Positions 39,936 through 63,252 of a stretch of DNA of 64,000 bases are shown in pieces. Origin of the DNA: an uncultured Amylibacter sp. (lineage in GTDB: Bacteria; Pseudomonadota; Alphaproteobacteria; Rhodobacterales; Rhodobacteraceae); contig CAXXWA010000036.1 in the NCBI GenBank assembly GCA_963662815.2, forward strand, positions 16,701 to 80,700, read 5' to 3'. Position numbers and translations under genes: made by a program. Under the pieces are notes generated by a model. That model was not told the DNA's origin. It made no database searches and worked only from the letters and a program-made list of their open reading frames with translations. The stretch's first letter is position 1, and each line of letters starts with the position of its first letter.

Positions 39936-40847
39936 TCAGGTGTCTCCGAATCCGCCGAGGCGCAGGCACAGCGCATCGAGGTCGTCGAGCGTCTTGTAGG
40001 AAATCCTGATCGAGCCGCCGGTCGTGCCCATTCGGTGGTTGATGCTGACCGGCAACTTGAGATTTGCCGACAAACCGGCTTCCAATGCCCGCGTATCGGC
40101 ATCCTTCTGCGTGGGCACCGCCCGCGTCCCGCTCGCGCCGCCGTCTTCCCTTCTGACAAGCGCCTCGGTCTGGCGAACATTCAGGCCCCTGTCAACGACC
40201 AGCGCCGCAAGCCCGGACGGATTCCGGCTTGATACGAGCGCCCGCGCGTGACCCGCGCTTAATCTGCCCTCCTCCAGCATGCGACGGACATCTTCCGGCA
40301 AGCCGAGGAGCCGCACCATGTTTGCAACGTGACTCCTGCTCCTGCCGAGAAGCTCCGAGAGGCTGTTCTGCGTATGGCCGAACCTGTCCAACAGTTCTCG
40401 GTATCCGGACGCCTCCTCCACAGGATTGAGATCTACGCGCTGCACGTTTTCGACGAGGGCGATCTCGAGTGCCTGACTGTCGTCGAACTCACGCACCAAC
40501 GCGGGGATTTCATGGATTTGCGCCAACTGCGCAGCGCGCCATCTCCGTTCTCCGGCAACGATCTGGTAGGGCGTCTCGCCGGCAGGGTCGGTCCTGACCA
40601 GAATCGGCTGCAGGATGCCGTGACGCTTCATCGACTCCGAAAGGCCTTCGAGTTCCTTTTCGGAGAACCTGCGGCGAGGCTGCTCCGGATTCGTGCGGAC
40701 CAGTTCCACGGGGACCATGACGCTGCCGATTGAAGTTTCCTCGTGCCGCCCGGCCGGGCCGGCTTCTGGGGCGAGGGGGCCGCCGCCGACGCCGAGTTCG
40801 CCGATCAACTCCGTGAGACCGCGTCCCAGTCCTCTCTTTTCCGCCAT
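39936..40847 (-). CDS. parB: chromosome partitioning protein ParB
   Basis: 303 aa. It has MAEKRGLGRGLTELIG, the GERRWRAA box and an HTH region. Confidence 0.95.
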   Translation of the reverse strand: MAEKRGLGRGLTELIGELGVGGGPLAPEAGPAGRHEETSIGSVMVPVELVRTNPEQPRRRFSEKELEGLSESMKRHGILQPILVRTDPAGETPYQIVAGERRWRAAQLAQIHEIPALVREFDDSQALEIALVENVQRVDLNPVEEASGYRELLDRFGHTQNSLSELLGRSRSHVANMVRLLGLPEDVRRMLEEGRLSAGHARALVSSRNPSGLAALVVDRGLNVRQTEALVRREDGGASGTRAVPTQKDADTRALEAGLSANLKLPVSINHRMGTTGGSIRISYKTLDDLDALCLRLGGFGDT

Positions 40848-40891
40848 GTCCGGCCTTCCCTTGCTTGGTTCAGTTGTCTCGCGTCATTCGA

Positions 40892-41680
40892 TCATCGGCC
40901 CGCCGGCGGAGCGGCCGCGTTCAGGAACTCGGCAGCGAGTTCCCTGTAGGCGCGGTTGCCGGTGCTGCCAGGATCGTACTGCGCGACGGGCACCCCGTGG
41001 GACGGAGCTTCGCTGAGGCGAACATTCCTCGGAATAACTGTCCTGTAGACCAGCGTACCGAGGTTCTCCCGGGCATCCTGCTCGACCTGGACGGAAAGGT
41101 TGTTCCGACGATCGAACATGGTGAGCAAGACGCCCTCGACCCGCAATCCGGCATTCAGACTCTCCCGGACCTTTCTTATGGTCAGAATGAGTTGCGACAG
41201 GCCTTCAAGCGCAAAGAACTCGCACTGTACGGGAATCAGGGCCGAGTGGCTCGCTGCCAGTGCGTTCAGCGTAAGCAGGTTGAGAGACGGCGGACAATCG
41301 ATCAGGACATAGTCCGGCATCTCCGGAAACCCCGCCAGATCGCGAAACGCGTCCTTCAGTCGCAGCGCCGGCTGCCGGAGCCTGACCAGTTCAACGTCTG
41401 CCGAACTGAGGTCGGTCGCGGACGTCGCAATCTTGAGGCCCTTGACCAGTGTCTCGACGCTCGCCGCCTTCAAGGGGGCATTGTCGACAATGACGTCGTA
41501 CATTGTCGTCTCCCTCGCCCGGGGGTCGATACCAAGGCCGGTCGATGCGTTGCCCTGCGGATCCAAGTCGACGAGAAATACCCGCTTCCCGGCCAGGGCG
41601 AGCGATGCGCCAAAATTGATCGCCGTCGTTGTTTTCCCGACACCGCCCTTTTGATTGGCTATGGCAATGATCTTGGACAC
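40892..41680 (-). CDS. parA: chromosome partitioning ATPase ParA (Soj)
   Basis: 262 aa with the deviant Walker A IANQKGGVGKTTT. Confidence 0.95.
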   Translation of the reverse strand: MSKIIAIANQKGGVGKTTTAINFGASLALAGKRVFLVDLDPQGNASTGLGIDPRARETTMYDVIVDNAPLKAASVETLVKGLKIATSATDLSSADVELVRLRQPALRLKDAFRDLAGFPEMPDYVLIDCPPSLNLLTLNALAASHSALIPVQCEFFALEGLSQLILTIRKVRESLNAGLRVEGVLLTMFDRRNNLSVQVEQDARENLGTLVYRTVIPRNVRLSEAPSHGVPVAQYDPGSTGNRAYRELAAEFLNAAAPPAGR

Positions 41681-41690
41681 TTTTCGCCTG

Positions 41691-42338
41691 TCATCCCCGG
41701 TGCGAACGGGACATGCACTCGATTTCGAGAATCCTGGCCTCCCGGTCGGTCAGGCTTGGAAACTCCGACAAGGAAAACTCCCATGTCCTTCTGGCATCGG
41801 CTACTTCACTAGCATGACCGCGACCCTTCAGGAACAGGCAAACGCCACGTCCCCGAAGCAGGTGCGAAGCCAGCGGAAGCAGCTCCTGCAGGGGCGCAAC
41901 GGCGCGTGCGGACACGATGTCGAAGCAGGCGCCATCCATGTCCTCCGCTCGCGAATTGACGACCCTGACCGATGTCGATGTTTCACGTGAAACATTTTCC
42001 AGGAATGCGCACTTGCGCGAATTGCTCTCGATCAGACTGACGCACAGCCCGGGAATCTGGTCCAGCGCCAGCATTGCCGCGACCATTCCCGGAAAGCCGC
42101 CACCGCTTCCGAGATCCGCCCAGGTTTCCGGACTGCGCTTCGAAGCAAGCGGAAGGAGCTGGGCAGAGTCGAGGAAATGCCGGCTCCAGACGGCATCCAG
42201 CGTGCGCCCCGAAACGAGGTTCAGGGAGGAATTCCACTTCCGGAGAAGCTCCGCATATCGTTCGAGCCGGCAAAATGTTTCACGTGAAACACCGATGTCC
42301 TCGAAAAGCCGCCTGCGCGCATCGTCCTCCGGATTCAT
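41691..42338 (-). CDS. rsmG: 16S rRNA (guanine527-N7)-methyltransferase
   Basis: 215 aa. It has the GidB N-terminal VSRET motif, the SAM motif [10 protein letters not shown], and an ATGA overlap with the mnmG stop. Confidence 0.92.
41978..41993. promoter_or_regulatory. parS: parS centromere site (perfect palindrome TGTTTCACGTGAAACA) inside rsmG
   Basis: This is an exact 16-mer that matches the universal parS consensus TGTTNCACGTGAAACA. It encodes the ..NVSRET.. segment of RsmG. Confidence 0.85.
42276..42291. promoter_or_regulatory. parS: parS centromere site (perfect palindrome) inside the rsmG 5' region
   Basis: Exact TGTTTCACGTGAAACA. It encodes the conserved N-terminal GVSRET motif of RsmG. 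Confidence 0.85.
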
Positions 42339-44215
42339 GCGCTCCGCCGTTTCGAACCGGTCTCGAGGCGGCGGAGCCGCCCCAGGATGAGAATCAGGGC
42401 GGCTGGAGTCATCCCGTCGATCCGTCCGGCCTGGCCAAGCGTTCCGGGCCTGATGCGCAGGAGCTTTTGCCGGAGTTCGTTCGACAGGCCGGGAATTTCG
42501 TCATAGGACATCCCGGCCGGAATCCGGATTCCCTCGTCTCGACGCAGGGCCCTTGCATCTCGTTCCTGCGCCTCGATGTAGTGCATGTAGGTCGCGTCCC
42601 TTTCGAGCTGGACAGCGATCTCGTCGGGAACTTCCGCAAGATCCGGCCAGATTGTCGCAAGCCTGGCGAAATCTATGTCCTTTCGGGACAGGAGCTCCAT
42701 GCCGTTGCGGCGAATTCCGTCGTGATTCAGGGCGATTCCCGCCTTTTCCGCCTCATTGGGCGTCAGGGACACGTCCCGCAACCGTGATCCGGCCGAGTTC
42801 AGGAGATCCATCTTCCGATCGTGAAACCGGCGGCGCGCCTCGCCAACGCATCCGATCCCGATGCCGACGCCCGTCAGGCGCTGGTCGGCATTGTCGGCGC
42901 GAAGCGACAGCCGATACTCCGCCCGCGACGTGAACATCCTGTAGGGCTCGGCCACGCCGCGCGTCACGAGATCATCGATCATGACCCCGATATAGGAATC
43001 CATGCGGCTGAATGTCACGGAATCCCGGCCGGCCGCGAGGGAAGCCGCATTGAGACCCGCGACGAGCCCCTGGGCTGCCGCCTCCTCGTATCCCGTCGTG
43101 CCGTTGATCTGGCCGGCGAGAAAGAGTCCGGGCACGTCCTTCACTTCCAGCGACGGAGACAGCGAACGCGGATCGACATAGTCGTACTCGATCGCGTATC
43201 CCGGCTGCGTGATTGCGGCGGTTTCAAGCCCGGCGATGGTGCGCACGTAGGCCTTCTGCACGTCGGCGGGCAAGGACGTCGAAATCCCGTTCGGGTAGAC
43301 GGTCACGTCATCAAGCCCTTCCGGTTCAAGGAATATCTGGTGCGACTTCCTTTCCGCGAACCGGGTGACCTTGTCCTCGACCGACGGGCAGTAGCGCGGC
43401 CCGATTCCCTCGATGTGACCGCCGTACATCGCGGATCGCGAAAGGTTTTTCCGGATTATGTCGTGCGTGCGCTCATTCGTCTGCGTTATTCCGCAGGAAA
43501 CCTGCCGGACAGCGGGCATCCCGGAAAGAAACGAGAACATCACGGGATCGCTATCACCCGGCTGCTCGCCGACAGCGCCCCAGTTCACGGTTCGGCCGTC
43601 CAGTCGCGGAGGGGTGCCGGTCTTCAGCCTGCCGAGGGGAAGCGAGTACGAGTCGAGACGCTCGGCAAGACGAACCGCGGGTGAATCGCCGATGCGCCCG
43701 CCCTGCATCCTGGCGTCGCCAACATGCACCACGCCGCGCAGGAATGTCCCGGCCGTCAGAACAACGGCGCCAGCGGGCACTTCCGCGCCGTCTGCGAGGA
43801 TGACTCCCGCGACCCGCGAGCCCTCCACGAGGAAATCCGTGACCTCGCCCTGCACCACGTCGAGACCGGGAAGGCCGCGGAACTCCGCCTGCATTCCCGA
43901 TCGGTACAGGGCGCGGTCCGCCTGAGCCCTCGGACCCTGCACGGCCGGCCCCTTCCGCCGGTTCAGCAGCCGGAACTGGATGCCGGCCCGATCCGCCACA
44001 CGGGCCATGAGTCCGTCGAGGGCGTCGATTTCGCGAACCAGGTGGCCCTTGCCCAGGCCGCCGATCGCCGGGTTGCAGGACATTTCGCCGATGCGGTCGA
44101 AACGGTGGGTCACGAGAATCGTCCGGGCGCCGGTGCGCCACGCGGCATGCGCGGCCTCGGTTCCCGCGTGTCCGCCGCCCACGACGACCACCGCGGTTCC
44201 GTCTTCGCGGTCCAT
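42335..44215 (-). CDS. mnmG: tRNA uridine 5-carboxymethylaminomethyl modification enzyme MnmG (GidA)
   Basis: The start is taken at ATG 44215 ([22 protein letters not shown]...). The track ORF starts at GTG 44272 and would read through the parS site. Confidence 0.93.
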
Positions 44216-44225
44216 GTCGTCCCTA

Positions 44226-44241
44226 TGTTTCACGTGAAACA
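44226..44241. promoter_or_regulatory. parS: parS centromere site (perfect palindrome) in the mnmE-mnmG spacer
   Basis: Exact TGTTTCACGTGAAACA, 11 nt upstream of the preferred mnmG ATG. Confidence 0.85.
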
Positions 44242-44268
44242 CTGTACGGTCCCTCGGAGTGAGCGGGT

Positions 44269-45582
44269 TCACTTCCCCATGCAGAAACTGGCGAATATCT
44301 CGTCCAGAACGTCTTCTACATCAACCCGCCCGATTATGGAATTCAGAGCGTGCGCGCAGCTCCGGAGTTCCTCGTAGACAATCTCCGGCTCTCCGCGTTC
44401 GCGCCGGAGCTGTTCGCGGGCAGCGACAAGGCACTCGAGCGCGCGGGAAATCGCGTCGCGGTGACGTCCGCGAACCGCGGACTGCGACGGCACCACACGC
44501 GTCGACAGGTTCTTGTCGAGCATTCCGATGATTTCTTCGATTCCCTGTCCCGTGACGCCGGACACGGGCAGCCCCGACCCCCGGTCATGGATGTCGCACT
44601 TTCCCCGGCAGACGATGTCTCCCGGCCGGCAGTCCACGCCCAGTCCGGACATCCCTCCGCCAAACGTAAGGAACAACCGGACGTCGGCGCATTCCGCCCT
44701 GCTTCTGGCCCTTTCGATTCCCAGCGTTTCGACGTCGTCCACGCCGTCCCTGAGCCCCGCCGTATCGAGAAAAATGACGGGAATTCCGTTCACGTCCATC
44801 CTGACCTCGATGACGTCGCGGGTGGTGCCGGCCGTTTCGGACGTAATCGCCGCTTCCCGGCCGGCAAGCGCGTTCAGAAGTGTCGACTTACCGACATTTG
44901 GCGGCCCGATGATCGCAACCTCGAATCCGTCGCGAACGCGTTCCGCGGCAAAAGAGCCGCTGATCTCGCCTCGGAACCCGGCTTCGAGGTCATCCAGGGT
45001 GCGAAGCACGCCGGTCCGCGCGTCGACAGGAACGTCGTCCTCGTCCGGAAAATCGATTGTCGCGTCGAGCAGGGCCATCGCCCGAATGAGAGACGAGCGC
45101 CACTCCTCGACTAGGTTCCGCAAGCCACCGCGCATCACGTGCAGCGCCTGCACGCGCTGATGTTCGGTTTCCGCCTCGATCAGGTCCGCGAGACCTTCGA
45201 CCTGGCTGAGGTCAAGGCATCCGTTGTCGAGCGCACGACGCGTGAACTCGCCGGGTCTCGCATGTCGAAGCCCCGGAAGGCACGCAAGCGCAGCCTGGAT
45301 CGCCTGGACAACGGCGGGGCTTCCATGTACTTGAAATTCCACGGTTTTTTCGCCGCTGAAGCTCGCACCACGGTCGAATGCAAGGACAAGCGAGCTGTCC
45401 AGAACGTCTCCGTTTGCGTTCCTCAGCGTGCAGAGCGACGGTCGTTTGACGGGGATAGCCTTGCCGCAGAGACTTCGGGCCGCCAGAAAGGCCGAGGGCC
45501 CCGATACCCGGACCACCGCGATGCCGGCCTTGCCCCGCGCGGATGCGAGAGCAAATATCGTGTCGGGCTCTGCATCATTCAT
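44269..45582 (-). CDS. mnmE: tRNA modification GTPase MnmE (TrmE)
   Basis: 437 aa. It has the N-terminal [21 protein letters not shown], the G domain [12 protein letters not shown] / DTAG, and the C-terminal FCMGK motif. Confidence 0.95.
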
Positions 45583-45604
45583 GTGCGGCGGCAGTCGGAG
45601 CGGA

Positions 45605-46894
45605 TCAGGTGTTCATCGAGTCGAAGAACTCAGTGTTCGTCCTCGTCTTCCTGAGCTTGTCCAGAAGGAATTCGATGGCGTCGGTGGTTCCCATCGGGTT
45701 CAGAATTCTCCGCAGGACGAAGGTCTTCGCAAGTTCCCCCTTGCTGACCAGAAGATCCTCCTTCCGCGTGCCGGACTTCAGTATGTCGATCGACGGGAAA
45801 ACCCGCTTGTCCGCGACCTTGCGATCAAGAACGATTTCGGAGTTCCCGGTACCCTTGAACTCCTCGAAGATGACCTCGTCCATCCGGGATCCGGTGTCGA
45901 TCAGGGCGGTTGCAATGATGGTCAGCGATCCGCCTTCCTCTATGTTCCGGGCGGCACCGAAAAACCGTTTCGGCCTCTGCAGCGCGTTTGCGTCCACGCC
46001 ACCGGTGAGTACCTTGCCCGACGAAGGCACGACGGTGTTGTAGGCGCGTCCGAGACGCGTGATGGAATCGAGAAGGATCACCACGTCCCGCTTGTGCTCC
46101 ACCAGCCGCTTCGCCTTCTCGATGACCATCTCGGAGACCGCCACATGACGCGTAGCAGGTTCGTCGAATGTCGAGGAGACGACCTCGCCCTTCACCGAAC
46201 GCTGCATGTCCGTGACTTCCTCGGGACGTTCGTCAATCAGCAGCACGATCAGGTAGCACTCCGGATGGTTTTTCTCGATTGAGTGCGCGATGTTCTGCAG
46301 GATCACCGTCTTGCCGGTTCGCGGCGGCGCAACGATCAGCGAGCGCTGACCCTTTCCGATCGGCGCGACGAGATCGATGACCCGCGCCGACTTGTCCTTT
46401 ATTTCCGGATCGGGGATTTCCATCTTCAGCCGCGTATCGGGGTACAGCGGCGTCAGGTTGTCGAAATGCACCTTATGGCGCGCGCTGTCCGGTTCGCTGA
46501 AATTTATCGACGAGACCCTGACGAGTCCGAAGTACCGTTCGTTTTCCAGGGGCGCGCGAATGACGCCTTCGACAGTGTCCCCGGTCTTGAGGGAGAATTT
46601 CCTGATCTGGTTCGGGCTGACGTATATGTCCTCCTGCCCCGGAAGGTAGTTCGCCTCGGGCGAACGCAGGAAACCGAACCCGTCCTGCATGACCTCGAGC
46701 ACGCCGTCGCCCGAGATCTCCGCACCGCCCTCGGCCTTCTCCTTGAGAATCGCGAACATCATTTCGCCCTTGCGCATGGGCGCCGTGCTCTCGAGTTCGA
46801 GTTCCTTTGCCATGCGCAGCAGGTCCGCGGGGCTCTTCGCCTTCAGTTCGGAAAGCGTAAGCGATTCCTGCTTCATCAAAGTGTCTGGATTCAT
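45605..46894 (-). CDS. rho: transcription termination factor Rho
   Basis: 429 aa. It has the N-terminal [13 protein letters not shown], the RNA-binding GFGFLR, Walker A PPRTGKT, and a C-terminus typical of Rho. Confidence 0.96.
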
Positions 46895-48134: not shown

Positions 48135-49371
48135 AGTCTGCTTACATCAAGGGTTGGCGATCCGGAATTTTTCAATGGATCCCCGACCCCGAAGTGACCC
48201 TCCATCCAGAGATCGCCCAATTGAGCGCCTGCATTCATGAATGCCTTTACTATTTTATTGTCAGTCAATGCATTACATCTCGTATAACCTTCTTCGTCGC
48301 GCCATAGAACCCGGACCTCGGCCGGCCGCAACGCGTCCAGAAAGAAAGGTGAGTGTGTGGTCACGAGAATCTGTGTCGCTTCCGTAGCTTCCCGACACTC
48401 CTCCGCCAACCCATGAAGCAGGCGGGGATGCAGAAAGTTCTCTGGTTCTTCAATTCCGATAAACGGGGGTGGGGCGACGGGTCACATAGCAAGGCAAGAT
48501 AAGCGAGCACTTTCAGCGTACCATCCGATGCGAATCGAGCCATGACAGGCTTTTCGAACGGACCATCCTTGATTTCGAGCAAGAGCCTTCCATCCGGCAT
48601 CTGGTTTGCCGAGACGTTCTGAATTCTCGGCACGCGCGCCCGGAGGCGTTCAAAAATTGACTCTAGGAGATCAGGGTGCTCTTCGGACAGGAACTGGATC
48701 ACGTTGGCGAGATTGTCACCGGTTTTGCTCAAGCGCTCCTGCGGGCCTGCCTCGGGCTGACCTCTCGCGTCCTCGCTTGAAAGATATGATACATGCCAGC
48801 CCATGATGAAATTTCGAAGTGCGACCACGCGAGGGTTTTCAGCCAACTGACCGAGCGCATTTGCCGCAAGGGTGTCGGGCGAATTTAGAGGGACTTCGAT
48901 TCGGGCGTCCTGCGCATCTGGCAATTCGCCAGAAATGACGCGGCCACGGCCTCCAGCGTAATCTAGAAACCTAAAGGGGGCGCCATAGCGCCCACGCTTC
49001 CAGCGGACCCACTCCGAAACAATTGCTGGCCGCCCGTTTTTCTCGTCTACTTCCAGATGGTAGGTGATCAGCGGCGTGCCCGGACGCTCCCGGTATGCAA
49101 TTTCGATCATTAACGGACCTCTCCCGCCACGCGACTTCAATTCCTTCGCCTTGCCGTGTTTTTCCCAGGCCCGACGCAATCCGAATTCAAAACACTCCGC
49201 GAGGAAGGCAAATACATCAAACACCGTCGACTTGCCGCTACCGTTCGGACCAAGCAGAACAGTCAACGGAGTCAGATGCGACAGTTCGACATTTCGAAGT
49301 GCACGGAAGTTATGTACCTTCAACCGTTCGATTCGCGGTGGCACCGCTTGGGCAGTCTTCACCTGAGTCAT
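48131..49371 (-). pseudogene. ABC/AAA_21-type (OLD/SMC-like) ATPase, interrupted by a 1-nt frameshift at a G5/C5 run
   Basis: Start ATG 49371 (AAGAGG RBS). The protein begins [49 protein letters not shown] (Walker A) and continues to ...[23 protein letters not shown]. The frame then breaks at the run 48464-48468. The +1 frame continues [43 protein letters not shown]... (Walker B, then the TTHSP H-loop region) to the stop at 48131. Repaired length is about 413 aa. Confidence 0.8.
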
Positions 49372-49703
49372 CACTTTGGCCTCTTGGACGACATTTCTCA
49401 TTTCTTTCGCACTTCTGTGCCGATTCATCAATCCATTCCGGTTCAATGCACTTTGGCAGGGAAATTGGTGTGTCACTACCGGCACGAGACTCCATCTGGT
49501 TAACCGGAAACGAAGGCGACTTCAGAGAGACGTCAAGCGGGCGGCGCTAGCGATCCGGAATCCTGGCGTCGCTCAGTCTCGCCGACCCAATCTGCAGATC
49601 GAACTGGAAGTTTTGTGACAAACAGGTTGAGAAGCCGAGCGCCACCGGGACTGGCGCGGTCAGCAGCAGTTGGATATGATTGGTTAGCAGGAAAGGGCAG
49701 CAC

Positions 49704-50891
49704 ATGTTCGAAACGCTCGCACCAGCCCAGCCGGACAAGATTCTCGCGCTAATTTCCATGTTCCGCGAAGACCCGCGGCCCGAAAAGTACGATCTGGGCG
49801 TCGGCGTCTACAAGGACCCTGCAGGCGCCACGCCCGTCATGGCCGCGGTCAAGGCGGCGGAACGCCGCGTGCTCGCGTCGCAGACGTCCAAGACTTACCT
49901 CGGACCCGAAGGCGATCCCCGGTTCAACGCCGCGATTTCACGGCTGGCATTCGGCAATGCGTTTGACGGCACCAGACTCCGCGCAATTCAGGCACCGGGC
50001 GGATCCGGCGCGCTGCGCATCATCGCCGAACTCCTCGCCGACGCGCGGCCCGGCTGCGCGGTGCATCTTCCGGATCCGACCTGGCCGAACCATCGCCCGG
50101 TTGCGGAAGCTGCCGGCCTCAAGGTCCGGACCTATCCCTATTTCGACCCGGTGAACGGCGAGGTCAGGTTCGAGGAAATGCTGGAAGCAATTCGCGAGTT
50201 GCCCGCCGGCGACATCGTCCTGCTTCACGGTTGCTGCCACAATCCGACCGGTGCCAACCTCGATGCCCGGCAGTGGAGCCGCCTCGCCGGCGCGCTGGCG
50301 GACAATGACCTGTTTCCCTTTGTCGACATGGCCTACCAGGGCTTCGGCGACGGACTCGACGAAGACGCGGCGGGGCTTCGCCACCTGGCTTCCGAAGTTC
50401 CCGAACTGGCGGCCGCAGTCAGTTGTTCGAAGAATTTTGCCGTCTATTGCGACCGTGTTGGCGCGGCGATCCTCGTCGCTGCGAACGGCCGCGATGCCGA
50501 AACCGCAATAGGCCGGTTGAAAACAGTCGCCCGCCGAAACTACTCCATGCCGCCGAACCATGGCGCCGCAACTGTCCGCACCGTCCTCGAGGATGCCGCC
50601 CTGTCGACGCAATGGCGGCAGGAGCTCGACGGCATGCGCACGCGAATGCTGCGTCTTCGAGTCGACCTCGCGGATGCCTTGAGACGCCAGTCGAATTCGG
50701 ATCGTTTCGACTTCCTGGCGATGCATCGCGGCATGTTCTCGTTGCTAGGACTATCCGACGACCAGGTCCGCGAATTGCGCGAGGACTTCGCGATCTACAT
50801 GGTTGGCGGCGGCCGCATAAACGTTGCCGGTTTGCGGGACGAAGGGCTCGACAAGCTGGCGGCGGCCATTGTCGAGGTGTCGTCGCGATAG
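49704..50891 (+). CDS. aromatic-amino-acid / aspartate aminotransferase (class I, AspC/TyrB type)
   Basis: Start ATG 49704 (MFETLAPAQPDKILALISMFREDPRPEKYDLGVGVYKD...). It has the PLP-Lys region SCSKNFAVYCDRVG and the C-terminal GRINVAGL. Confidence 0.9.
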   Translation: MFETLAPAQPDKILALISMFREDPRPEKYDLGVGVYKDPAGATPVMAAVKAAERRVLASQTSKTYLGPEGDPRFNAAISRLAFGNAFDGTRLRAIQAPGGSGALRIIAELLADARPGCAVHLPDPTWPNHRPVAEAAGLKVRTYPYFDPVNGEVRFEEMLEAIRELPAGDIVLLHGCCHNPTGANLDARQWSRLAGALADNDLFPFVDMAYQGFGDGLDEDAAGLRHLASEVPELAAAVSCSKNFAVYCDRVGAAILVAANGRDAETAIGRLKTVARRNYSMPPNHGAATVRTVLEDAALSTQWRQELDGMRTRMLRLRVDLADALRRQSNSDRFDFLAMHRGMFSLLGLSDDQVRELREDFAIYMVGGGRINVAGLRDEGLDKLAAAIVEVSSR

Positions 50892-50947
50892 GTGACATGG
50901 CGTGTTGTGCGCCGCCAGCCTGAACAAATGACCGGCCCGCTTTCCCG

Positions 50948-52021
50948 TCAACGTTGCGCCAACCCCGATCCAGATGTCGCGCTGAGTATGTTTTCACGCG
51001 TGATTATTTCGAACGACAGGGTTTCGACACGGAATGTCCGTTTTTCAAGGTGGGCCACCAGCACCTCGACGGTCTGTTCGGCTGCAGCCCGCATGTTCTG
51101 GTGAAGAACGATGTCCATGCTTCCATCCAGAAGATAGCCCTGGGTCTTCGGTGTCAGATTATGTCCGATGAAGACAAGTTCGCCACAGGCGCCACTGTCC
51201 TTGAGCGCCCGGACGACGCCCTCGTTTCCGCCCCCGACATTGTATAGTCCGACAAGGTCGGGCCGTTCGTCCACAAGTCTGCGGACCGCCCGGTAGTTTC
51301 CTTCAATGTCGTCGTTGCCGCACAGAGTCCCGATCACATCGAGTTTGCGGAAGTCTCTTTGCAGGATAGACCTGAATCCCATCTCGCGGTCCTCGTGGAC
51401 CCGATACAGCTGCCCGCCGGAGATCACGGCCACCGGGCCGGCGCGATGGGAAATCCTTCCCATCAGGTAGCCGGCAGTCCGGCCCGCGGCGCGATTGTCG
51501 AACCCGACGAACCCCAGCAACGACGGGCTCTTGATGTCCGACAGGAGTGCGAGCGAAGGGATTCCGAGCCGTGAGAGAGCCTCGACTCCGTCACGAACCC
51601 TGGGATCTTCCAGCGCCTGGAACGCGACCGCGTCAATGCCCTGCATGGAGCATGCGTGGAGTTTCCGGGCGAGAATCGAAGGTTCCATTTTCTTCGTGAA
51701 GACACATTCGATTGTCGCGTTGCCCCGTTCGCCGAATTCCTGAAAACACCGCCCGAGAAACTCCGTGGAAGGGCCGGCCTCTCCCGGCAGAAAGACCTTC
51801 AGCCGCCAAGTGCGTCTCCGCTCTTCCGGCCAAAGGCCCGCTTCAATCGCATTCCGGGCCTGAAGCACGCGCTGACGCGTGGTTTCGCTGACGTGCGGAC
51901 GGCCGTTGACAACCCGGTCCACAGTGGCTGTTCCGACTCCCGCCAGCCTGGCGATCTCCAAGACTCTGGCGCGGCGTGGACCGACCAGTTTTCCGTCGCG
52001 TATCGATGAATTATCCATCAA
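50948..52021 (-). CDS. LacI-family transcriptional regulator
   Basis: 357 aa with an HTH (RVLEIARLAGVGTATVDRVVNG) and a PBP-like effector domain. It is divergent from the decayed TRAP binding-protein gene. Confidence 0.88.
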   Translation of the reverse strand: MMDNSSIRDGKLVGPRRARVLEIARLAGVGTATVDRVVNGRPHVSETTRQRVLQARNAIEAGLWPEERRRTWRLKVFLPGEAGPSTEFLGRCFQEFGERGNATIECVFTKKMEPSILARKLHACSMQGIDAVAFQALEDPRVRDGVEALSRLGIPSLALLSDIKSPSLLGFVGFDNRAAGRTAGYLMGRISHRAGPVAVISGGQLYRVHEDREMGFRSILQRDFRKLDVIGTLCGNDDIEGNYRAVRRLVDERPDLVGLYNVGGGNEGVVRALKDSGACGELVFIGHNLTPKTQGYLLDGSMDIVLHQNMRAAAEQTVEVLVAHLEKRTFRVETLSFEIITRENILSATSGSGLAQR

Positions 52022-52139
52022 TTCACACCAAGTTCCGAGAATCCGGGTTGGCCTTTGGCATCAAAATACATCAATGCGCATTCGGACGTTACAATTTTCT
52101 TGTCCGTCCCGGGGCCCCGGCCATACTCTGAACGGCAAA

Positions 52140-52607
52140 ATGGACCAAGAATGCTCAAAACAGGGAGGAACAAATGGCAATAAACCCATTCTGTTGTCCG
52201 GTCTGGCCGGAGCGTTGATGTCCGCCGGAGTGGCGATTGCCGCGGATTTCACATTCAAGTGCGGGAACTCGCAACGCGAACAGGCTGCGCGGTCGCAATC
52301 GATGATCTTCTTCGAGAAGGCCCTCGAAGAACGGTCAGGAGGACGAATCGATGTCGAATACTACTTCGGCGCAGTTCTCGCCAATGAACAGGAAATGTTC
52401 GATCAGGTCACGACCGGCCAGTTGCAGGCGACCCGGGGCGGGTTCTTCGCAAACGCAAATCCGAAGTTTAACATTTTCCTTCTGCCCTTCCTTACGAGCG
52501 GGTAGGACGAAATGCAGTGCCTTGTTGGCAGCGACTTCGCCAAGTCCGTCCAGGAAGGCGCAGCAGCTAACGGATTCCATGTTCCGGCAACAGGCATCAG
52601 AGGCTGA
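52140..52607 (+). pseudogene. TRAP transporter substrate-binding protein (DctP family) - nonsense-mutated and 3'-truncated
   Basis: It has a signal-peptide-like LLSGLAGALMSAGVAIAADF, then FFEKALEERSGGRIDVEYYFGAVLANEQEMFDQVTTGQLQATRGG...NIFLLPFLTSG. An in-frame TAG follows at 52503-52505, where a Trp (TGG) would fit. The same frame continues DEMQCLVGSDFAKSVQEGAAANGFHVPATGIRG and then similarity ends. Only about 155 of about 330 codons remain, and no dctQ/dctM follow. Confidence 0.65.
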
Positions 52608-52699
52608 ATCATAATTCACTTTTCGATTTTCCCGCTCGTTTCAGCAGCTTGCCGCACGCGCCACCCGCCGCATCATGAACCGGCAGGCCGCCAGCCGGC

Positions 52700-52950
52700 A
52701 CCACGTCAGCGCCTTCTCCAGCATCCCGAGGATCACCGAAGGGGCGCCGTCCCGGTCCTGCACGTCGGCCTCGTGGATCTCGATCGTGATCGGGAACCCC
52801 TCGATTTCGACGGTGATGTGGCGCTTCCGGCCCTTGACCTTCCTGCCGGCGTCGCAGCCGGCAGGGCCGCCCCTTTCCGCCGTCTTCGCCAACTGCCTGT
52901 CGATCGCCGCCGCCGTCGCCTCTCCCGAGCGTCCCGCCAGTTCCCGCGGT
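52700..52950 (-). mobile_element. IS5-family transposase internal fragment (DDE region remnant)
   Basis: Minus-strand translation reads RELAGRSGEATAAAIDRQLAKTAERGGPAGCDAGRKVKGRKRHITVEIEGFPITIEIHEADVQDRDGAPSVILGMLEKAL. This matches the IS5/IS427-group core (..IDSQSVKTTE.GG.RGYDAGKK.KGRKRH..VDT.G....V.V..A.VQDRDGA). There is no start, no C-terminal E region, and no IRs were seen. Confidence 0.6.
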
Positions 52951-53073
52951 GGTATGCGACCAATCCCGGTTTTTCCTCCGCAAGCGATTCCGGACAGTTT
53001 TTCGATTCGTCCCAGTGATGGCCGACACCGCGATCCGACTATCCGTTTGAATCGGAGAAAGTGAGCAACGACA

Positions 53074-53964
53074 ATGTCGACCGCCGGAATAGTTGGCCTC
53101 GGGGACATGGGAAGCGGCCTCGCGCGAAACCTCGTCAGGAACGGTTTCCGGACGGTCGGATACGATCTGAGCGACCGGCGCATGATGGAATTCCGCGCGC
53201 TGGGCGGCGACCCGGCCGCGGATGTGGCCAATGTCGCCAGATGCTCCGATGCCGTCTTCGTCATGGTAATGACAGGAGACCAGGCCAGGTCCGTGATCCT
53301 CGGCGAAGACGGGCTCGTCGTGAACATGCGCACCGGTGGCACAATCATCCTTACAGCGACGATCACGCCGGCCGACGCACGTGAAATCGCCGACCGGATG
53401 GCCGAAACGTCCGTCCGGCTGGTGGACAGCCCGGTTTCAGGCGGCTTCCCCGGTGCCCAGAACGGCACCCTGACACTGATGGCCGCCGGCAAGAGTCGGC
53501 ACATAGACGATGTCCGCCCGTTCCTGGAAGCCGTGTCTACGCGGATTCACGTGGTCGGGAACAACCCCGGAGACGGGCAGACGGTCAAGGCCTGTCTTCA
53601 GTCCCTGATCGGCGCGATATTTGCCGCAACCTTCGAGACTTCCGTACTCGCCGCGAAAGCCGGCGTGTCGGGCGAGGCATTCCACGAAGTGGTCGCAAGC
53701 AGCGGCGCAGGATGCGGCGTCGCCAGCACCGCCCTCGAAAACATCATTGACCGGCGGTTCGAGGGCACCGGAAGCCACATCGACACGATGCACAAGGACC
53801 TGACGATCGCGCTCGACATGGCCGCGGAGCAAGGGGTGCCCGTACACATGGCCTCGACGGCCATGCAGATCTTCCGCGCCGGAAGAACGAAACACCCTCG
53901 CGGCGACAACTGGGTTTGCACCCGGGTCCTCGAAGATATCGTCGGCGCCGAACTGCATCGCTGA
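53074..53964 (+). CDS. NAD(P)-dependent oxidoreductase, 3-hydroxyisobutyrate-dehydrogenase family (tartronate-semialdehyde reductase / L-threonate dehydrogenase-like)
   Basis: 296 aa. It has an N-terminal Rossmann fold (IVGLGDMGSGLARNL), VDSPVSGG and GDGQTVKACLQ. Confidence 0.85.
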   Translation: MSTAGIVGLGDMGSGLARNLVRNGFRTVGYDLSDRRMMEFRALGGDPAADVANVARCSDAVFVMVMTGDQARSVILGEDGLVVNMRTGGTIILTATITPADAREIADRMAETSVRLVDSPVSGGFPGAQNGTLTLMAAGKSRHIDDVRPFLEAVSTRIHVVGNNPGDGQTVKACLQSLIGAIFAATFETSVLAAKAGVSGEAFHEVVASSGAGCGVASTALENIIDRRFEGTGSHIDTMHKDLTIALDMAAEQGVPVHMASTAMQIFRAGRTKHPRGDNWVCTRVLEDIVGAELHR

Positions 53965-53979
53965 GTCGCGGAACCTGTC

Positions 53980-54852
53980 ATGAAACTCGGAGTCATTACG
54001 GACGGCATAAGCCGCAACCTGTTTCGCGCCGTGGACGTGATGGACGAGTTCGGGCTTGCCTACGCGGAATTGCAATACGTTGGAGAAAAGGAGGTCGGCG
54101 ATCACACCAGCACCGAAATCGCTGACATCAATCGCCTGCTGCGCGACCGCGGCAAGTCCGTCAGTTGCATCTCCAGGCACGTATTCGCAGGCATGACCTC
54201 CGAGAATCGTCCGGGGGACCCGCTGCACGCAAGCCACATGGACTCCCTGAAACGCGTCATCGACATGGCGCATGCGACCGGCGCGCCGCTTGTCCGGATC
54301 ATGACACCGCGGAAGGAGCAGATTCTCTGGGGACGCAACGGGGCCGAAAAGTGGAATGTTGCCCGCGGCGCATGGGACGCTACGGCACCCCTGATCCGGC
54401 CCGCAGTCGAGCTCGCGGCAAGGGAGAACGTGACGCTTGTGGTCGAAACCGGGAACGGAACGATGGTCAACTCCAGCTATACGGCGCGCCGACTCATCGA
54501 CGAACTCGACGCTGCCGACCAGTTGAAGGTCCTCTGGGATCCTGGCAACAACTGCTGGTGCCACGAACCCGCCTATCCCGATGGATACATGGAGTTGCAG
54601 CCTGGCTATATCGGACACATCCACATGAAGGACCTCCTGGTCGACACCCCGCGCGCGACTCTCGAGGTCCGGCGATTCGGCCATGGACAGCTCGCAAGCA
54701 TGTTCGGCCCGATCGCAAGCGCCCTGCGTGCCGACGGCTACGACGGGGTGATATCATTGGAAAGCGTATTTCACCCGGGCAACGGCGATTTCGAAAGCGG
54801 CTTTCGCCAGTGCGTCGGCTCATTCAAGGCGCTCTTCGGACCCCGTTCCTGA
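53980..54852 (+). CDS. sugar phosphate isomerase/epimerase (xylose-isomerase-like TIM barrel, AP_endonuc_2 family)
   Basis: 290 aa with a pattern of conserved acidic/His positions (..VVETGNG.., HIHMKD, ISLES). Confidence 0.75.
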   Translation: MKLGVITDGISRNLFRAVDVMDEFGLAYAELQYVGEKEVGDHTSTEIADINRLLRDRGKSVSCISRHVFAGMTSENRPGDPLHASHMDSLKRVIDMAHATGAPLVRIMTPRKEQILWGRNGAEKWNVARGAWDATAPLIRPAVELAARENVTLVVETGNGTMVNSSYTARRLIDELDAADQLKVLWDPGNNCWCHEPAYPDGYMELQPGYIGHIHMKDLLVDTPRATLEVRRFGHGQLASMFGPIASALRADGYDGVISLESVFHPGNGDFESGFRQCVGSFKALFGPRS

Positions 54853-54907
54853 AGCCCTCGTCCATCCATGGAGCCCGCACGTTACTCTCCAGTGCCGCGG
54901 CAAGCAC

Positions 54908-55351
54908 TCAGAATGGCCGTACGACCACCAGCACGACCACCAGCACCATTATCGTGGCCGGCAACTCATTCATGAACCTGAACGTCCTGCCCGTAGTCCG
55001 GTTCTCGCCAGCAGCGAATTGCCTCAGGCACTTTCCGAGCCATGCGTGGTACCAGGTCAGGCCAACAACAAGCAGGATCTTTGCCCATATCCAGATCGAG
55101 TTCATGTCCACTGCTCCGGGCATGAAGAACAGAACCAGGCCGAACCCCCAGGTCGCCATCATTGCCGGGTTCATGATGATCTTCAGCAGCCGGCGCTCCA
55201 TGCCGGTGAAGACTTCCGAAAGTTCGCTGCCGACAGGAGCCTTTTCCGCATGATTCACGAAAAGGCGCGGAAGATACAGGAGTCCCGCCATCCAGCAAAT
55301 CACTGAAATGATGTGAAACGCCTTTATCCAGGGATAGACTACAGCAAGCAT
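54908..55351 (-). CDS. hemJ: protoporphyrinogen IX oxidase HemJ (UPF0093/CopD-like membrane protein)
   Basis: The start is taken at ATG 55351 (MLAVVYPWIKAFHIISVICWMAGLLYLPRLFVNH...). The protein has 4-5 TM segments. The track ORF begins at an upstream GTG (55393). Confidence 0.85.
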   Translation of the reverse strand: MLAVVYPWIKAFHIISVICWMAGLLYLPRLFVNHAEKAPVGSELSEVFTGMERRLLKIIMNPAMMATWGFGLVLFFMPGAVDMNSIWIWAKILLVVGLTWYHAWLGKCLRQFAAGENRTTGRTFRFMNELPATIMVLVVVLVVVRPF

Positions 55352-55496
55352 GAAATGCGGACTCCGGTTTTGTGTGAGGATTCCGGCGAACACATATATT
55401 CAATAGAAGAATATGAAAAGAATCCTGTTGGAGGAGTAGTATGCTGTTGAAAACGTGGATTACTGAAAACTTAACATTTTCAAAAACATGCAAATA

Positions 55497-55505
55497 TGTG
55501 GAAAA
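55497..55505 (-). promoter_or_regulatory. DnaA box-like 9-mer (TTTTCCACA, 1 mismatch)
   Basis: The plus strand reads TGTGGAAAA. Confidence 0.5.
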
Positions 55506-55583
55506 TCTTCGCACAACCTGTGAATTCGACAAATAAATCATTATTATTCCTATGGTTGCATAAAACACAGGCGGGGAAAAGAT

Positions 55584-55592
55584 TGTGGATGA
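55584..55592 (-). promoter_or_regulatory. DnaA box-like 9-mer (TCATCCACA, 1 mismatch)
   Basis: The plus strand reads TGTGGATGA. Confidence 0.55.
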
Positions 55593-55648
55593 TTTTCTTC
55601 GAATGCGGTAATCCCCGGAATTCACGGGTGTTGGCAAATTTTCCTCCC

Positions 55649-55657
55649 TGTGGATGA
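55649..55657 (-). promoter_or_regulatory. DnaA box-like 9-mer (TCATCCACA, 1 mismatch)
   Basis: The plus strand reads TGTGGATGA, identical to the box at 55584. Confidence 0.55.
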
Positions 55658-55820
55658 AACGGGGAATCCTGTTGACTGGCGTCGCAGAGACTGCGAACGA
55701 TCCGCGGAGATTGTGGAAAGTCGCCGCTAGTCCACATCTCCGTCCCCGGATCATCCACGGGATTTTCCACGGTTCGGGCCGGTCTCCGCGGATTGGAGGG
55801 CCGGCCAGGAGGAGATTGAA

Positions 55821-56423
55821 ATGACCGGACACCGACCCGTCCTTGCTTCCGGTTCCGCGACCCGCCGCGCTCTGCTCCGCAGTGCGGGCGTGGAGTTCGA
55901 TGTCAGGGTCGAGGGGGTTGACGAGACGGCCATCATCGATTCCTTGAAGGCAGAAGGCGTGCAACCGGAGGAGATTGCGCGGACCTTGGCGGAAACCAAG
56001 GCCCTCCGTGCGGGCAGACACGAGCCTGACCGCGTAACGATTGGGTGCGACCAGCTTCTCGTCTGCGATGGCGAAATTATGGTCAAGGCGGCTTCGCTCG
56101 ATGCGGCGCGGCGGACACTGGGCTTCCTTCGAGGCCGAAGCCATGACCTGGTTTCGTCCTGCGTGGTCGCGATGGGTTCCAGATCCGTCTGGCATGCCAC
56201 TCGGCGCGCGACCTTGACGATGAGAAGCTTTTCGGACGACTTCCTCGACGCGTATCTGTCTCGCAACTGGCCTGCAGTGAGTTCCTCGGTCGGATGCTAC
56301 AGGGTTGAAGAGGAAGGCATTCAGCTGTTCTCGGCGGTCGACGGCGATCACGCCACGATCCTGGGCTTGCCGCTACTGGATCTTCTGGAATACCTGAGGG
56401 TACGAGGAGACTTGGCACGATGA
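55821..56423 (+). CDS. maf: Maf-like nucleoside-triphosphate pyrophosphatase
   Basis: 200 aa (LASGSATRRALLRSAGVEFDV...), with an AGGAGG RBS. Confidence 0.88.
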   Translation: MTGHRPVLASGSATRRALLRSAGVEFDVRVEGVDETAIIDSLKAEGVQPEEIARTLAETKALRAGRHEPDRVTIGCDQLLVCDGEIMVKAASLDAARRTLGFLRGRSHDLVSSCVVAMGSRSVWHATRRATLTMRSFSDDFLDAYLSRNWPAVSSSVGCYRVEEEGIQLFSAVDGDHATILGLPLLDLLEYLRVRGDLAR

Positions 56424-57262
56424 TCACGGGAAGGAGCATACCGGTTGCGGGAGTTGTCGGCTGGCCCATCGCTCACAGCCGCTCGCCGCAGATTCACGGT
56501 TACTGGCTGGCGCGATACGGGTTGCACGGGCACTACGTGCCTCTCGGAATCGCGCCTGACGACTTTGATGCCGCGTTCCCGGCGCTTGCGAAACTTGGAT
56601 TTTCCGGTGTGAACGTAACCATTCCACACAAGGAACGCGTTCTGAACCACGTTACCAGCCGCAGCGATGCCGTGGAAAAGACCGGCGCCGCGAACACCAT
56701 TGTCTTTCATCAGGATGGGTCGGTGCACGCGGACAACACGGATGGAGCCGGTTTTCTCATGAACGCGAAGTCATGCGCACCGGAGTGGTCTGCAGGAGCT
56801 GGGCCTGCACTTGTACTTGGCGCCGGCGGCGCGGCGCGGGCTGTTGTCACTGCGCTTCTCTCCGATGGTGCCGGAGAAATCCTCCTGGCCAACAGAACGC
56901 GCTCCCGGGCCGAAGCGCTATGCGGCGACTTCGGGCCACCGGTCGCCTGCATCGACTGGGATCGCGCGGGGGATCGCTTTCCGGACGCGGCGACGATCGT
57001 GAACACAACGTCTCTCGGCATGATGGATCAGCCCCAGCTGCCATTCCGATTCCGGCCGGAGAGCAGCTCCGCCGTGGTGATCGACATCGTGTACAACCCG
57101 CTTTTGACCGATTTCCTGAAGACGGCGCGAGAAAACGGAAACAAGATTGTCGACGGGCTCGGCATGCTGCTGCACCAGGCCGTGCCGGGTTTCGAGGCGT
57201 GGTTCGGAGTAAGGCCGGAAGTCGACGCCGAGCTCAGGAAGGCCGTGCAGGCGGAGATCTGA
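56420..57262 (+). CDS. aroE: shikimate dehydrogenase
   Basis: 280 aa with IAHSRSPQIHGYW, GVNVTIPHK and LGAGGAARAV. Confidence 0.92.
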   Translation: MITGRSIPVAGVVGWPIAHSRSPQIHGYWLARYGLHGHYVPLGIAPDDFDAAFPALAKLGFSGVNVTIPHKERVLNHVTSRSDAVEKTGAANTIVFHQDGSVHADNTDGAGFLMNAKSCAPEWSAGAGPALVLGAGGAARAVVTALLSDGAGEILLANRTRSRAEALCGDFGPPVACIDWDRAGDRFPDAATIVNTTSLGMMDQPQLPFRFRPESSSAVVIDIVYNPLLTDFLKTARENGNKIVDGLGMLLHQAVPGFEAWFGVRPEVDAELRKAVQAEI

Positions 57263-57921
57263 TGGGACCCTTCTACATTCTTGGCCTGACAGGGGGGATC
57301 GGGTCGGGAAAGTCAACGACGGCCGCGTTCTTCCGAGAAGCCGGGATCCCCGTCTGGGATGCGGACGAGGCCGTTGAGCGGCTCTACGCAAGCGAAGGCG
57401 CCGCTGTCCGGGGCATGTCGAGGCTGGTTCCGGCCGCGACGGAACAGGGATTTGTCGACAGGGAAATTCTTCGCGCCGAAATTCGCCGGCGTCCTTCCAT
57501 TCTCGCGAAGATCGAGGAAGTCATTCATCCCCTGGTCAGCGCCGACAGGACGGCCTTCTTCGATCGAGCAGGGGCAGAAGGGCATTGCATCGTGGTCTGC
57601 GACGTGCCTCTGCTGTTCGAGACGGCCGGCGAAGCGTGGTGCGACGGGGTGCTTGTTGTGACAGCGCCGCTCGAGGTGCGCAGGTCGCGAGTACTGGCGC
57701 GGGAGGGAATGACGGAGGCCATGTTCGAAGTCGTTCTCGAGCGGCAGATCAGCGAGCCGAAGCGTCTTGCGAAAGCGGATTTCGTCATCCATACCGAGAC
57801 CCTGGATAGTGCCCGATCCCGGGTCAAAGACCTCATCGGGGAACTGGCGGCGGGACTCGGGAAGGCCCGCAGCTCCACCTGGCGCTCGGAGACTTGCGGG
57901 ACGGAAGCCGGCGATGCGTGA
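57262..57921 (+). CDS. coaE: dephospho-CoA kinase
   Basis: ATG 57262 overlaps the aroE TGA. The protein begins MGPFYILGLTGGIGSGKST (P-loop). Confidence 0.9.
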   Translation: MGPFYILGLTGGIGSGKSTTAAFFREAGIPVWDADEAVERLYASEGAAVRGMSRLVPAATEQGFVDREILRAEIRRRPSILAKIEEVIHPLVSADRTAFFDRAGAEGHCIVVCDVPLLFETAGEAWCDGVLVVTAPLEVRRSRVLAREGMTEAMFEVVLERQISEPKRLAKADFVIHTETLDSARSRVKDLIGELAAGLGKARSSTWRSETCGTEAGDA

Positions 57922-58630
57922 AGTCGTGGTCGACACAGAAACCACCGGGATCGACCCCGCCGCCGGACACAGGATCGTGGAAGTCGGCTGCATCGAACTC
58001 AACAATCACCTTCCGACCGGACGCAGCTTCCACAGCTACTTCGATCCCGAGCGCGACATGCCGGCGGACGCATATGCAGTACATGGCCTGAGTTCGGAAT
58101 TTTTGGCCGGAAAACCGACGTTTGCCTCGGTGGCGGACCAGTTTCTGGACTTCATCGTCGATGCGGTCCTGGTCATTCACAATGCGCCTTTCGATATCGG
58201 CTTCCTCAACGCGGAACTCGAACGCGCCGGAAGGCGCGGCCTTTCGGATTTCCGTGTCAAGGACACTCTGGAGATGGCGAGGAACAGGCATCCGGGCGCG
58301 CAGAACTCTCTTGACGCCCTTTGCCGGCGTTTCGGAATCGACAATTCCGGCAGGTCGGAAGCGCATGGAGCCCTGATCGATTCCGAACTTCTTGCCGCAG
58401 TGTACCTCGAGCTGATCGGGGGACGGCAACCGGATCTGATCCCCGTTGCCGAAGCCGGAAACAGCGACATTGACGATTCAGGTCCGGATGACGCGGTACG
58501 AGAAGTTCGCGAACGACCAACCAGTCTTCCGGGGCGGCTGACGGAAGCCGAACTGGCGGCTCACAGGGAATTCGTCGCCAAACTCGGCAGGGACTCCATC
58601 TGGAAAGCGGTCTACGGCTATCCGGACTGA
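57914..58630 (+). CDS. dnaQ: DNA polymerase III epsilon subunit (3'-5' proofreading exonuclease)
   Basis: ATG 57914. It has MREVVVDTETTGIDP (Exo I), LVIHNAPFDIGFL (Exo II) and HGALIDSELLAAVY (Exo III). Confidence 0.93.
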   Translation: MREVVVDTETTGIDPAAGHRIVEVGCIELNNHLPTGRSFHSYFDPERDMPADAYAVHGLSSEFLAGKPTFASVADQFLDFIVDAVLVIHNAPFDIGFLNAELERAGRRGLSDFRVKDTLEMARNRHPGAQNSLDALCRRFGIDNSGRSEAHGALIDSELLAAVYLELIGGRQPDLIPVAEAGNSDIDDSGPDDAVREVRERPTSLPGRLTEAELAAHREFVAKLGRDSIWKAVYGYPD

Positions 58631-61278: not shown

Positions 61279-62586
61279 TCACAGGACGTAGCGAGAGAGG
61301 TCCGTCGATCTCGCCAGTTCGCCCAGGTTTTTCTCGACGAATCCGGCGTCGACGGTCACCTTCTGACCGGGCTGGTCGGGCGCGTCGAAACTGAGTTCCT
61401 CGAACACGCGTTCCATGACCGTATGCAGCCGTCTCGCACCGATGTTCTCGACGGAGCGGTTGACCTCCGCGGAGATCCGGGCAAGCGCCATGATGCCGTC
61501 TTCCGCGAACGCGACATCCACGTCCTCGGTCGCCATGAGCGCGCGGTACTGGCGGGTCAACGCGTTGTCCGTCTCCGTCAGTATGCGGACAAAGTCCTGT
61601 TCCGTGAGCGGCCGCAACTCGACGCGAATTGGCAGCCGGCCCTGCAGTTCCGGAAGGAGGTCTGAAGGCTTGACGACATGAAATGCGCCTGACGCGATGA
61701 AGAGGATGTGATCCGTCCTGACAGGGCCGTGTCTCGTCGAAACCGTTGTGCCCTCGATCAGGGGAAGAAGATCGCGCTGAACCCCCTCCCTGGACACTTC
61801 CGCACCCTGCACGCCGGACCGGGCGCACACTTTGTCGATTTCATCGAGAAATACGATCCCGCTGCTTTCCACGGACTGGATCGCCTCGGCAACCACGGTG
61901 TCGGAATCGACGAGCTTCTCAGCCTCCTCGTTCACGAGAACTGCGTAGGAATCCGCTACCGTAAGGCGGCGTTTCACGGTCCGGCCCTGAAACGCCTTGC
62001 CGAAGATCTCGCCGATGTTGACCATCCCCATGTTCACGCCCGGCTGACCGGGAATGTCGAGCATCTGAAGGGGATTCGACGAATCAGAAACATCGAGTTC
62101 GATTACCCGGTCGTCCAGCTCGTTCGCGCGCAGCTTCGCGCGGAACATCTCGCGCGTGGAATCGCGCGCGTCGGATCCCGCAAGGGCGTCGATGACACGG
62201 TCTTCGGCGGCAGCGCGGGCATCCGCCTCGACGTCCGCATGCATGCGTTCGCGCACCATGTGGATGGCGTTGTCCAGTAGATCGCGGACGATCTGGTCCA
62301 CGTCCCGGCCAACATATCCGACTTCGGTGAACTTCGTCGCCTCGACCTTCAGGAATGGCGCTCTCGCCAGCCTCGCCAGCCTTCTCGAGATTTCCGTCTT
62401 TCCCACGCCTGTGGGCCCGATCATCAGGATGTTCTTCGGATATACCTCTTCACGGATGTCGTCATCGAGTTGCCTTCGCCGCCATCGGTTCCTGAGCGCG
62501 ACGGCCACGGCGCGCTTCGCGTCCCTCTGGCCGATGATGAATCGGTCGAGTTCGGAAACGATTTCGCGCGGGGTCAGATTGGTCAT
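61279..62586 (-). CDS. hslU: ATP-dependent protease ATPase subunit HslU
   Basis: 435 aa with [20 protein letters not shown]..., Walker [11 protein letters not shown] and IVFLDEIDK. Confidence 0.97.
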
Positions 62587-63248: not shown

Positions 63249-63252
63249 GGGA

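Follow-up and report, generated by a model that had tools for sequence, protein, structure and literature searches.

According to DoriC, as described for Ketogulonicigenium vulgare Hbe602, an oriC position adjacent to maf is conserved in Rhodobacteraceae (PMC4793288), and maf itself is an indicator gene of Ori-Finder (PMC3794950). With the same program, oriC has been placed in 101 Rhodobacteraceae genomes on the basis of the skew minimum, the local GC minimum and the proximity of parAB (PMC6699656). These origins are predictions, and the literature searched yielded no experimentally mapped Rhodobacterales oriC. Another known alphaproteobacterial origin, Cori of Caulobacter crescentus, lies beside hemE, overlaps a DUF299 gene (CCNA_00001) and has CtrA and GANTC sites, five of each, as well as one IHF site (PMC6393856, PMC1914354).

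We analyzed a stretch of 64,000 nucleotides, hereafter called the window (C36:16701-80700), from a 44-contig draft assembly of 5,519,017 bp. Rho identities of 82-87% placed the organism in Rhodobacterales/Paracoccaceae. Between the divergent hemJ and maf genes of this window lies a noncoding gap which the first-pass annotation had proposed as a candidate oriC. We predict, with a probability of roughly 0.9, that this gap is the DnaA-dependent oriC of the main chromosome of this Rhodobacterales (Paracoccaceae/Rhodobacteraceae) bacterium. The proposal gained support from a DnaA-box array that is unique in the genome, from the A+T extreme of the assembly, from nearby parS sites, from synteny in 19 relatives and from the coincidence of the syntenic gap with the skew origin in complete relatives.

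Judged from its sequence features, the gap is a member of the predicted Rhodobacteraceae maf-adjacent class and not a Caulobacter-type CtrA-gated origin, because its layout fits the published descriptions (PMC4793288, PMC6699656) while the accessory features of Cori failed in our tests. Like the origins of that class, it holds an intergenic box cluster directly upstream of maf, forms a local GC minimum and lies near parAB; those origins also lie at the GC-disparity minimum, as the syntenic gap does in a complete relative of the same genus (G008). No essential difference from the class was found, and the particular traits of the present locus are the lack of a perfect box, the turnover of boxes relative to the genus and an 8-kb insert between rho and hemJ.

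The gap is bounded exactly by two start codons, that of hemJ on the minus strand (55351-55349) and the ATG of maf (55821), which leaves 469 bp. Its left part, about 55394 to 55560, had been described as A+T-rich, and indeed the GC content there is only 31.1%, compared with 55.8% in 55561-55820, 46.9% across the gap and 61.8% for the window as a whole. No other 300-bp segment of the window is as poor in GC as the one within the gap (37.7%), the next lowest reaching 46.7%. Among 110,252 windows of 170 bp sampled across the assembly, a single one was equally A+T-rich, and that one is presumably 55394-55560 itself; by these sampled windows, the gap holds the most A+T-rich 170 bp of the 5.52-Mb assembly. 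A scan of the gap for Rfam families, sigma-70-like promoters and terminator consensus sequences gave no match. A 96-aa open reading frame on the minus strand (55480-55770) was judged spurious, as it extends across the boxes and matched no family.

Table 1. Features of the hemJ-maf gap and its surroundings, in window coordinates
Feature	Position	Strand	Remarks
parB-parA-rsmG-mnmG-mnmE-rho block	39936..46894	-	Co-directional with leftward replication
Three parS sites, TGTTTCACGTGAAACA	41979-41994, 42276-42291, 44226-44241		Perfect 16-bp palindromes
hemJ (protoporphyrinogen oxidase)	54908..55351	-	Left flank, transcribed away from the gap; TIGR00701, 155.8 bits against a cut-off of 138
oriC candidate gap	55352..55820		469 bp, noncoding, between divergent hemJ and maf
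A+T-rich half, hemJ side	55394..55560		Candidate DNA-unwinding region by composition, boxes interspersed
Trio-like run	55429..55442	-	GC-ATA-CTA-CTC-CTC, from the tandem boxes toward A+T-rich DNA
DnaA box TTTTCAACA	55445..55453	-	2 mismatches; orthologous by position to the left-hand box that is best conserved in the genus and reads TTTTCCACA in relatives
DnaA box TAATCCACG	55454..55462	-	2 mismatches; abuts the 55445 box, forming a tandem pair
DnaA box TTTTCCACA	55497..55505	-	1 mismatch; lineage-specific
DnaA box TCATCCACA	55584..55592	-	1 mismatch; lineage-specific
Weak box TAATCCCCG	55607..55615	+	3 mismatches; orthologous to TTTTCC(A/C)CG in relatives
DnaA box TCATCCACA	55649..55657	-	1 mismatch; lineage-specific; relatives have an opposite-orientation box a few bp off
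DnaA box CTTTCCACA	55712..55720	-	2 mismatches; kept in 8 of 8 genus relatives
DnaA box TAGTCCACA	55728..55736	+	2 mismatches; box with at most 2 mismatches here in 7 of 8 genus relatives
DnaA box TCATCCACG	55751..55759	+	2 mismatches; equivalent (G/A)TATCCACA in 5 of 8 genus relatives
DnaA box TTTTCCACG	55763..55771	+	2 mismatches; weakly conserved
maf-aroE-coaE-dnaQ operon	55821..58630	+	Right flank, transcribed away from the gap

To locate DnaA boxes, 9-mers were compared with TTATCCACA on both strands of all contigs, allowing up to one or up to two mismatches, and counted per 470 bp. The eight 9-mers listed in the first-pass annotation all occur where it had put them, with the mismatch counts it gave relative to TTATCCACA or the complementary 9-mer. 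To that list we added TGTTGAAAA at 55445, likewise a two-mismatch box. None of the boxes in the gap is a perfect TTATCCACA. They share the core TCCAC(A/G), in which TCCAC is invariant; six of them point in one orientation (55445-55720) and three in the opposite one (55728-55771), in addition to the weak box at 55607. With 3 boxes of at most one mismatch and 9-10 boxes of at most two mismatches, the gap is the single maximum of box density in the whole draft assembly, since counts per 470 bp elsewhere in the 5.52 Mb never exceeded 2 and 6, respectively. The 9-10 boxes are packed into 330 bp, a cluster of more than three boxes at a mean spacing below 100 bp.

Could such an array arise by chance in an ordinary A+T-rich divergent promoter region? 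The box consensus leans toward A+T and the region is A+T-rich, and the minor motifs described below (GANTC and CtrA-like) occur at chance level, all of which would fit this reading. Composition-matched block shuffles of the gap (n = 2000) spoke against it, giving means of 0.13 boxes with at most one mismatch and 1.5 boxes with at most two mismatches, against the 3 and 9 observed; the former count had a P value of about 0.0005, and the latter was reached by none of the 2000 shuffles. By examining related genomes, we found that the enrichment is not confined to this assembly. The gap itself gave no usable nucleotide match by blastn against 40 relatives, even within the genus, and being too diverged for this comparison, its synteny was traced through Maf, HemJ and AroE instead. 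With Maf as probe, 36 of the 40 relatives yielded a locus, and a separate search for related loci with Maf returned only three distant matches. In 19 relatives, all of the same family, the order hemJ, gap, maf-aroE is kept, with gaps of 363-614 bp that are A+T-richer than their flanks; in most of them the A+T-richer half is the hemJ-side half. These 19 gaps contain 65 boxes with at most one mismatch, compared with 2.5 in composition-matched shuffles, which corresponds to 7.65 per kb versus 0.17 per kb in 59.5 kb of flanks (45-fold).

Within the genus, the gaps of nine members (this genome and 8 relatives) could be aligned. Four boxes, at 55445, 55712, 55728 and 55751, have positional orthologues in this alignment; those at 55497, 55584 and 55649, the three best of this genome, are lineage-specific. 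Conservation reached 0.81 in the box columns against 0.66 in the remaining columns (p = 7e-7). Since the enrichment recurs in 19 relatives and several boxes are positional orthologues, an accidental origin of the array in a promoter region is effectively refuted.

Next to the box array, we considered the GC skew of the contig on which it lies. The cumulative skew of C36 declines over 63 kb: it stands at +158 at 9 kb and bottoms out locally at C36:72,003 (window 55303) with -830, 49 bp to the left of the gap. Past the gap, the curve climbs by 200 over 6.5 kb and then drops to the contig end, near which the contig-wide minimum lies. In this draft of 44 contigs, C36 continues for just 18 kb beyond the gap on its right side, so the curve is local and not replicon-wide. 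An attempt to lengthen the curve by ordering the contigs of this genome on the complete relative G008 was abandoned, as synteny is too scrambled: over 200 kb on either side of the origin, gene order differs heavily between the two genomes although they belong to one genus, with blocks of 5-15 kb distributed over more than 10 contigs.

The stretch in which the skew of C36 turns negative again carries the minus-strand hslU-hslV-infB block (61279-64000; C36:78-90 kb), which is located 5.5 kb rightward of the origin and itself has a negative GC skew. Being on the minus strand and to the right of the origin, this block is head-on to replication, which would explain the renewed negative skew of C36. 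The arrangement is probably old, because G022, a complete genome of another genus, shares the smrA gene facing hslU to the right of its origin, and the skew is flat over those 20 kb; the large-scale skew switch of G022 is still at the gap despite its hslVU-infB block. In G008, the block is 150 kb away on the other replichore and is co-directional there.

Complete relatives gave a clearer picture. G008 belongs to the same genus and consists of one contig of 4,294,315 bp, for which the skew was computed over 918-1318 kb. The cumulative curve is sharply V-shaped and reaches its lowest point at 1,118,068, 121 bp from the syntenic gap at 1,118,189-1,118,651. Twenty 20-kb samples taken from the rest of this chromosome were positive in 9 of 10 cases from 1.5 to 3.2 Mb and negative in 9 of 10 cases from 3.3 Mb round to 0.7 Mb (means +0.025 versus -0.023, p = 6e-4), so the two replichores have opposite skew, and from these signs the terminus would lie near 3.25 Mb, opposite the gap. 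In G002, a further complete genome of the genus, and in G022, the skew changes from negative to positive within 9-18 kb of the gap.

These comparisons also bear on the reading in which the gap is a DnaA regulatory or titration site, either datA/DARS-like or a DnaA-controlled divergent hemJ/maf promoter, with the true origin on another or an unassembled contig. DnaA doubles as a transcription factor, the promoters of hemJ and maf must both sit in the gap, the assembly is a draft, and the skew of its own contig forms no clean V. Against these points, three complete relatives have their skew origin at the syntenic gap, the A+T extreme of the genome adjoins the boxes, and neither a second DnaA-box cluster in the 5.52 Mb nor another large contig with an origin-like skew minimum plus boxes was found. 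It seems that a purely regulatory role is very improbable, and that the oriC reading accounts better for the locus. Two other positions were considered and rejected. One was on contig C29, whose tail (422-446 kb) was examined for a second origin-like switch and has no DnaA-box cluster; this 24-kb contig end (C29:422000-446626) combines a strongly positive GC skew (0.1-0.23) with a low GC content (52-60%) and includes a 1554-aa open reading frame. The dnaA gene lies on a further contig (C9:109890-111218) with only two 2-mismatch boxes upstream and a monotonic skew along C9, and since this contig shows neither a box cluster nor a skew switch, the origin is not at dnaA. A separate observation concerns C24:65041-65457 (locus L002), where a weak match to a DnaA-model AAA+ domain (27.8 bits) lies inside a 327-aa open frame, possibly encoding a regulator of the Hda type or a DnaA-like plasmid replicase.

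The gene content around the gap agrees with a chromosomal origin. The annotated flank genes hemJ, maf, aroE, coaE, dnaQ, rho, mnmE, mnmG, rsmG, parA and parB were all verified, as was secB. Rightward after dnaQ follow secB (minus strand), a Tim44-like gene and smrA (plus strand), and then hslU, hslV and infB (minus strand), and the housekeeping operons on the two sides diverge from the hemJ-maf gap. The parAB genes are 14-15 kb from the gap. A scan of the whole genome for parS (TGTTTCACGTGAAACA), in which up to two mismatches were allowed, returned only three matches, all of them perfect, 11-13 kb to the left of the gap and inside the parAB-rsmG-mnmG-mnmE block; by the gene limits used, two lie inside rsmG, and the third falls where the mnmG and mnmE reading frames overlap. 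Several extrachromosomal replicons are common in Rhodobacterales (PMC3832669), and the draft contigs are not assigned to replicons, which leaves room for a reading of the gap as the origin of a chromid or plasmid. This seems extremely unlikely, because the flanks consist of single-copy core genes (rho, mnmEG, rsmG, dnaQ, secB, aroE, infB and hslVU), a chromosomal parAB-parS system stands beside the gap, and in relatives the syntenic locus sits on chromosomes of 4.3-6.0 Mb. An origin of the main chromosome is thus the reading retained here.

The interval from rho to hemJ (46895-54907) is filled by some 8 kb of accessory and decayed genes, among them a HEC-01-like ATPase/DUF4276 pair, an aminotransferase, a LacI regulator, a TRAP remnant, an IS5-family fragment, a dehydrogenase and a TIM-barrel gene. 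Because rho directly abuts hemJ in G022, this interval looks like an insertion hotspot adjoining the origin.

How far the locus resembles Cori was then a matter of distinguishing neighborhood from detail. Both are alphaproteobacterial, lie far from dnaA, have weak imperfect boxes and an A+T-rich region, and are flanked by a heme-biosynthesis gene. The wider surroundings of Cori, with par-gid-mnmE-rho on one side and maf-aroE-coaE-dnaQ on the other, are matched in the present window, and to this extent the earlier claim that the flanks fit the alphaproteobacterial, hemE-Cori context stands. The immediate flank, however, is hemJ (TIGR00701) and not hemE, so the analogy with Cori holds for the neighborhood only; moreover, Cori is bordered by hemE and the DUF299/COG1806 gene, whereas here hemJ and maf are the neighbors and no DUF299 gene precedes maf.

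The accessory motifs differ as well. Cori has five CtrA sites, whereas the gap has one CtrA-like site with one mismatch, TTAC-N7-TTAA, at chance level and absent from relatives. The site noted earlier (TTACTGAAAACTTAA at 55460) is present, but when the A+T-rich part is shuffled such a match arises with P = 0.34; CtrA-like sites were found in none of the gaps of the 8 genus relatives, and the gap has no set of multiple TTAA-N7-TTAA motifs overlapping boxes. Cori also has a GANTC cluster and an IHF site, whereas GANTC is unenriched in the gap and the IHF consensus WATCAANNNNTTR has no match in it. The two GANTC sites reported at 55420 and 55664 are exactly placed, and further ones occur at 55360 and 55379, but they are neither enriched nor conserved in relatives: the gap has 4 sites where the genome averages 1.8 per 470 bp, and at least 4 are found in 12% of windows. 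Similarly, the 11-bp direct repeat GAATCCTGTTG does occur at 55420 and 55664, with marginal significance (P = 0.024), and the same 11-mer is found 8 more times elsewhere in the genome.

The unwinding side of the gap was compared with the basal unwinding system of Bacillus subtilis and other bacteria (PMC8287927, PMC6669920). The published trio rule (PMC8287927) calls for a box with at most two mismatches followed within 16 nt by at least three NAN trios leading into A+T-rich DNA. Here, the triplets of the trio-like run follow 2 nt past the tandem pair (55454 and 55445) and 11 nt from the upstream box, with A+T-rich DNA beyond them, and their complement reads TAT-GAT-GAG-GAG in the 3'-to-5' direction, that is, four NAN triplets including one 3'-GAT-5'. 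The pattern at 55429-55462 fits the rule, yet so do 15% of shuffles (P = 0.15), and the orthologous place in relatives lacks it. Next to the box, the genus relatives have conserved GTAGTTGTTGTAGGGG rather than the trio-like pattern.

The conserved element of the relatives deserves a description of its own. Beside the best-conserved box, at a distance of about 60-80 bp from the start of hemJ, genus relatives (L009-L015) share GTAGTTGTTGTAGGGG(T/C)TGTGGAAAA, a 3-nt-periodic run with a G cluster. It is not a canonical DnaA-trio, as just 2 of its 4 triplets have A as the central base. Where the genus relatives have GTAGTTGTTGTAGGGG, the present genome carries GGAGGAGTAGTATGC. One might go further and regard the Rhodobacterales origin as a distinct alphaproteobacterial oriC sub-type, in which CtrA gating would have been lost, unwinding would proceed through a lineage-specific non-trio element (GTAGTTGTTGTAGGGG in the genus, GGAGGAGTAGTATGC here) beside the conserved hemJ-side box, and boxes would turn over rapidly and invert around four fixed ones; we consider this extension unlikely.

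The anatomy of the gap, its uniqueness in the genome, its conservation and the coincidence with skew in relatives were computed in this analysis; DnaA binding, the site of unwinding and firing are what we infer. In its anatomy, the gap agrees with a standard DnaA origin. Under the oriC reading, DnaA-ATP would occupy some ten imperfect boxes that share the core TCCAC(A/G) and would oligomerize toward the hemJ side, opening the A+T-rich stretch 55394-55560, at which the helicase would be loaded. Two forks would then depart along the transcription directions of the flanking operons, and ParB, by binding the three parS sites that lie 11-13 kb leftward of the gap, would segregate the new origins.

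The finding is solid but ordinary, as the position of the origin has already been predicted for the family and knowledge of replication initiation is unchanged. To an origin class that is only predicted in Rhodobacterales, the locus adds a documented case together with a genus-level view of which DnaA boxes are fixed and which have turned over. It also fixes the zero point of the draft chromosome, for use in orienting contigs, in replichore and gene-dosage analyses and in a replicating vector for the group.
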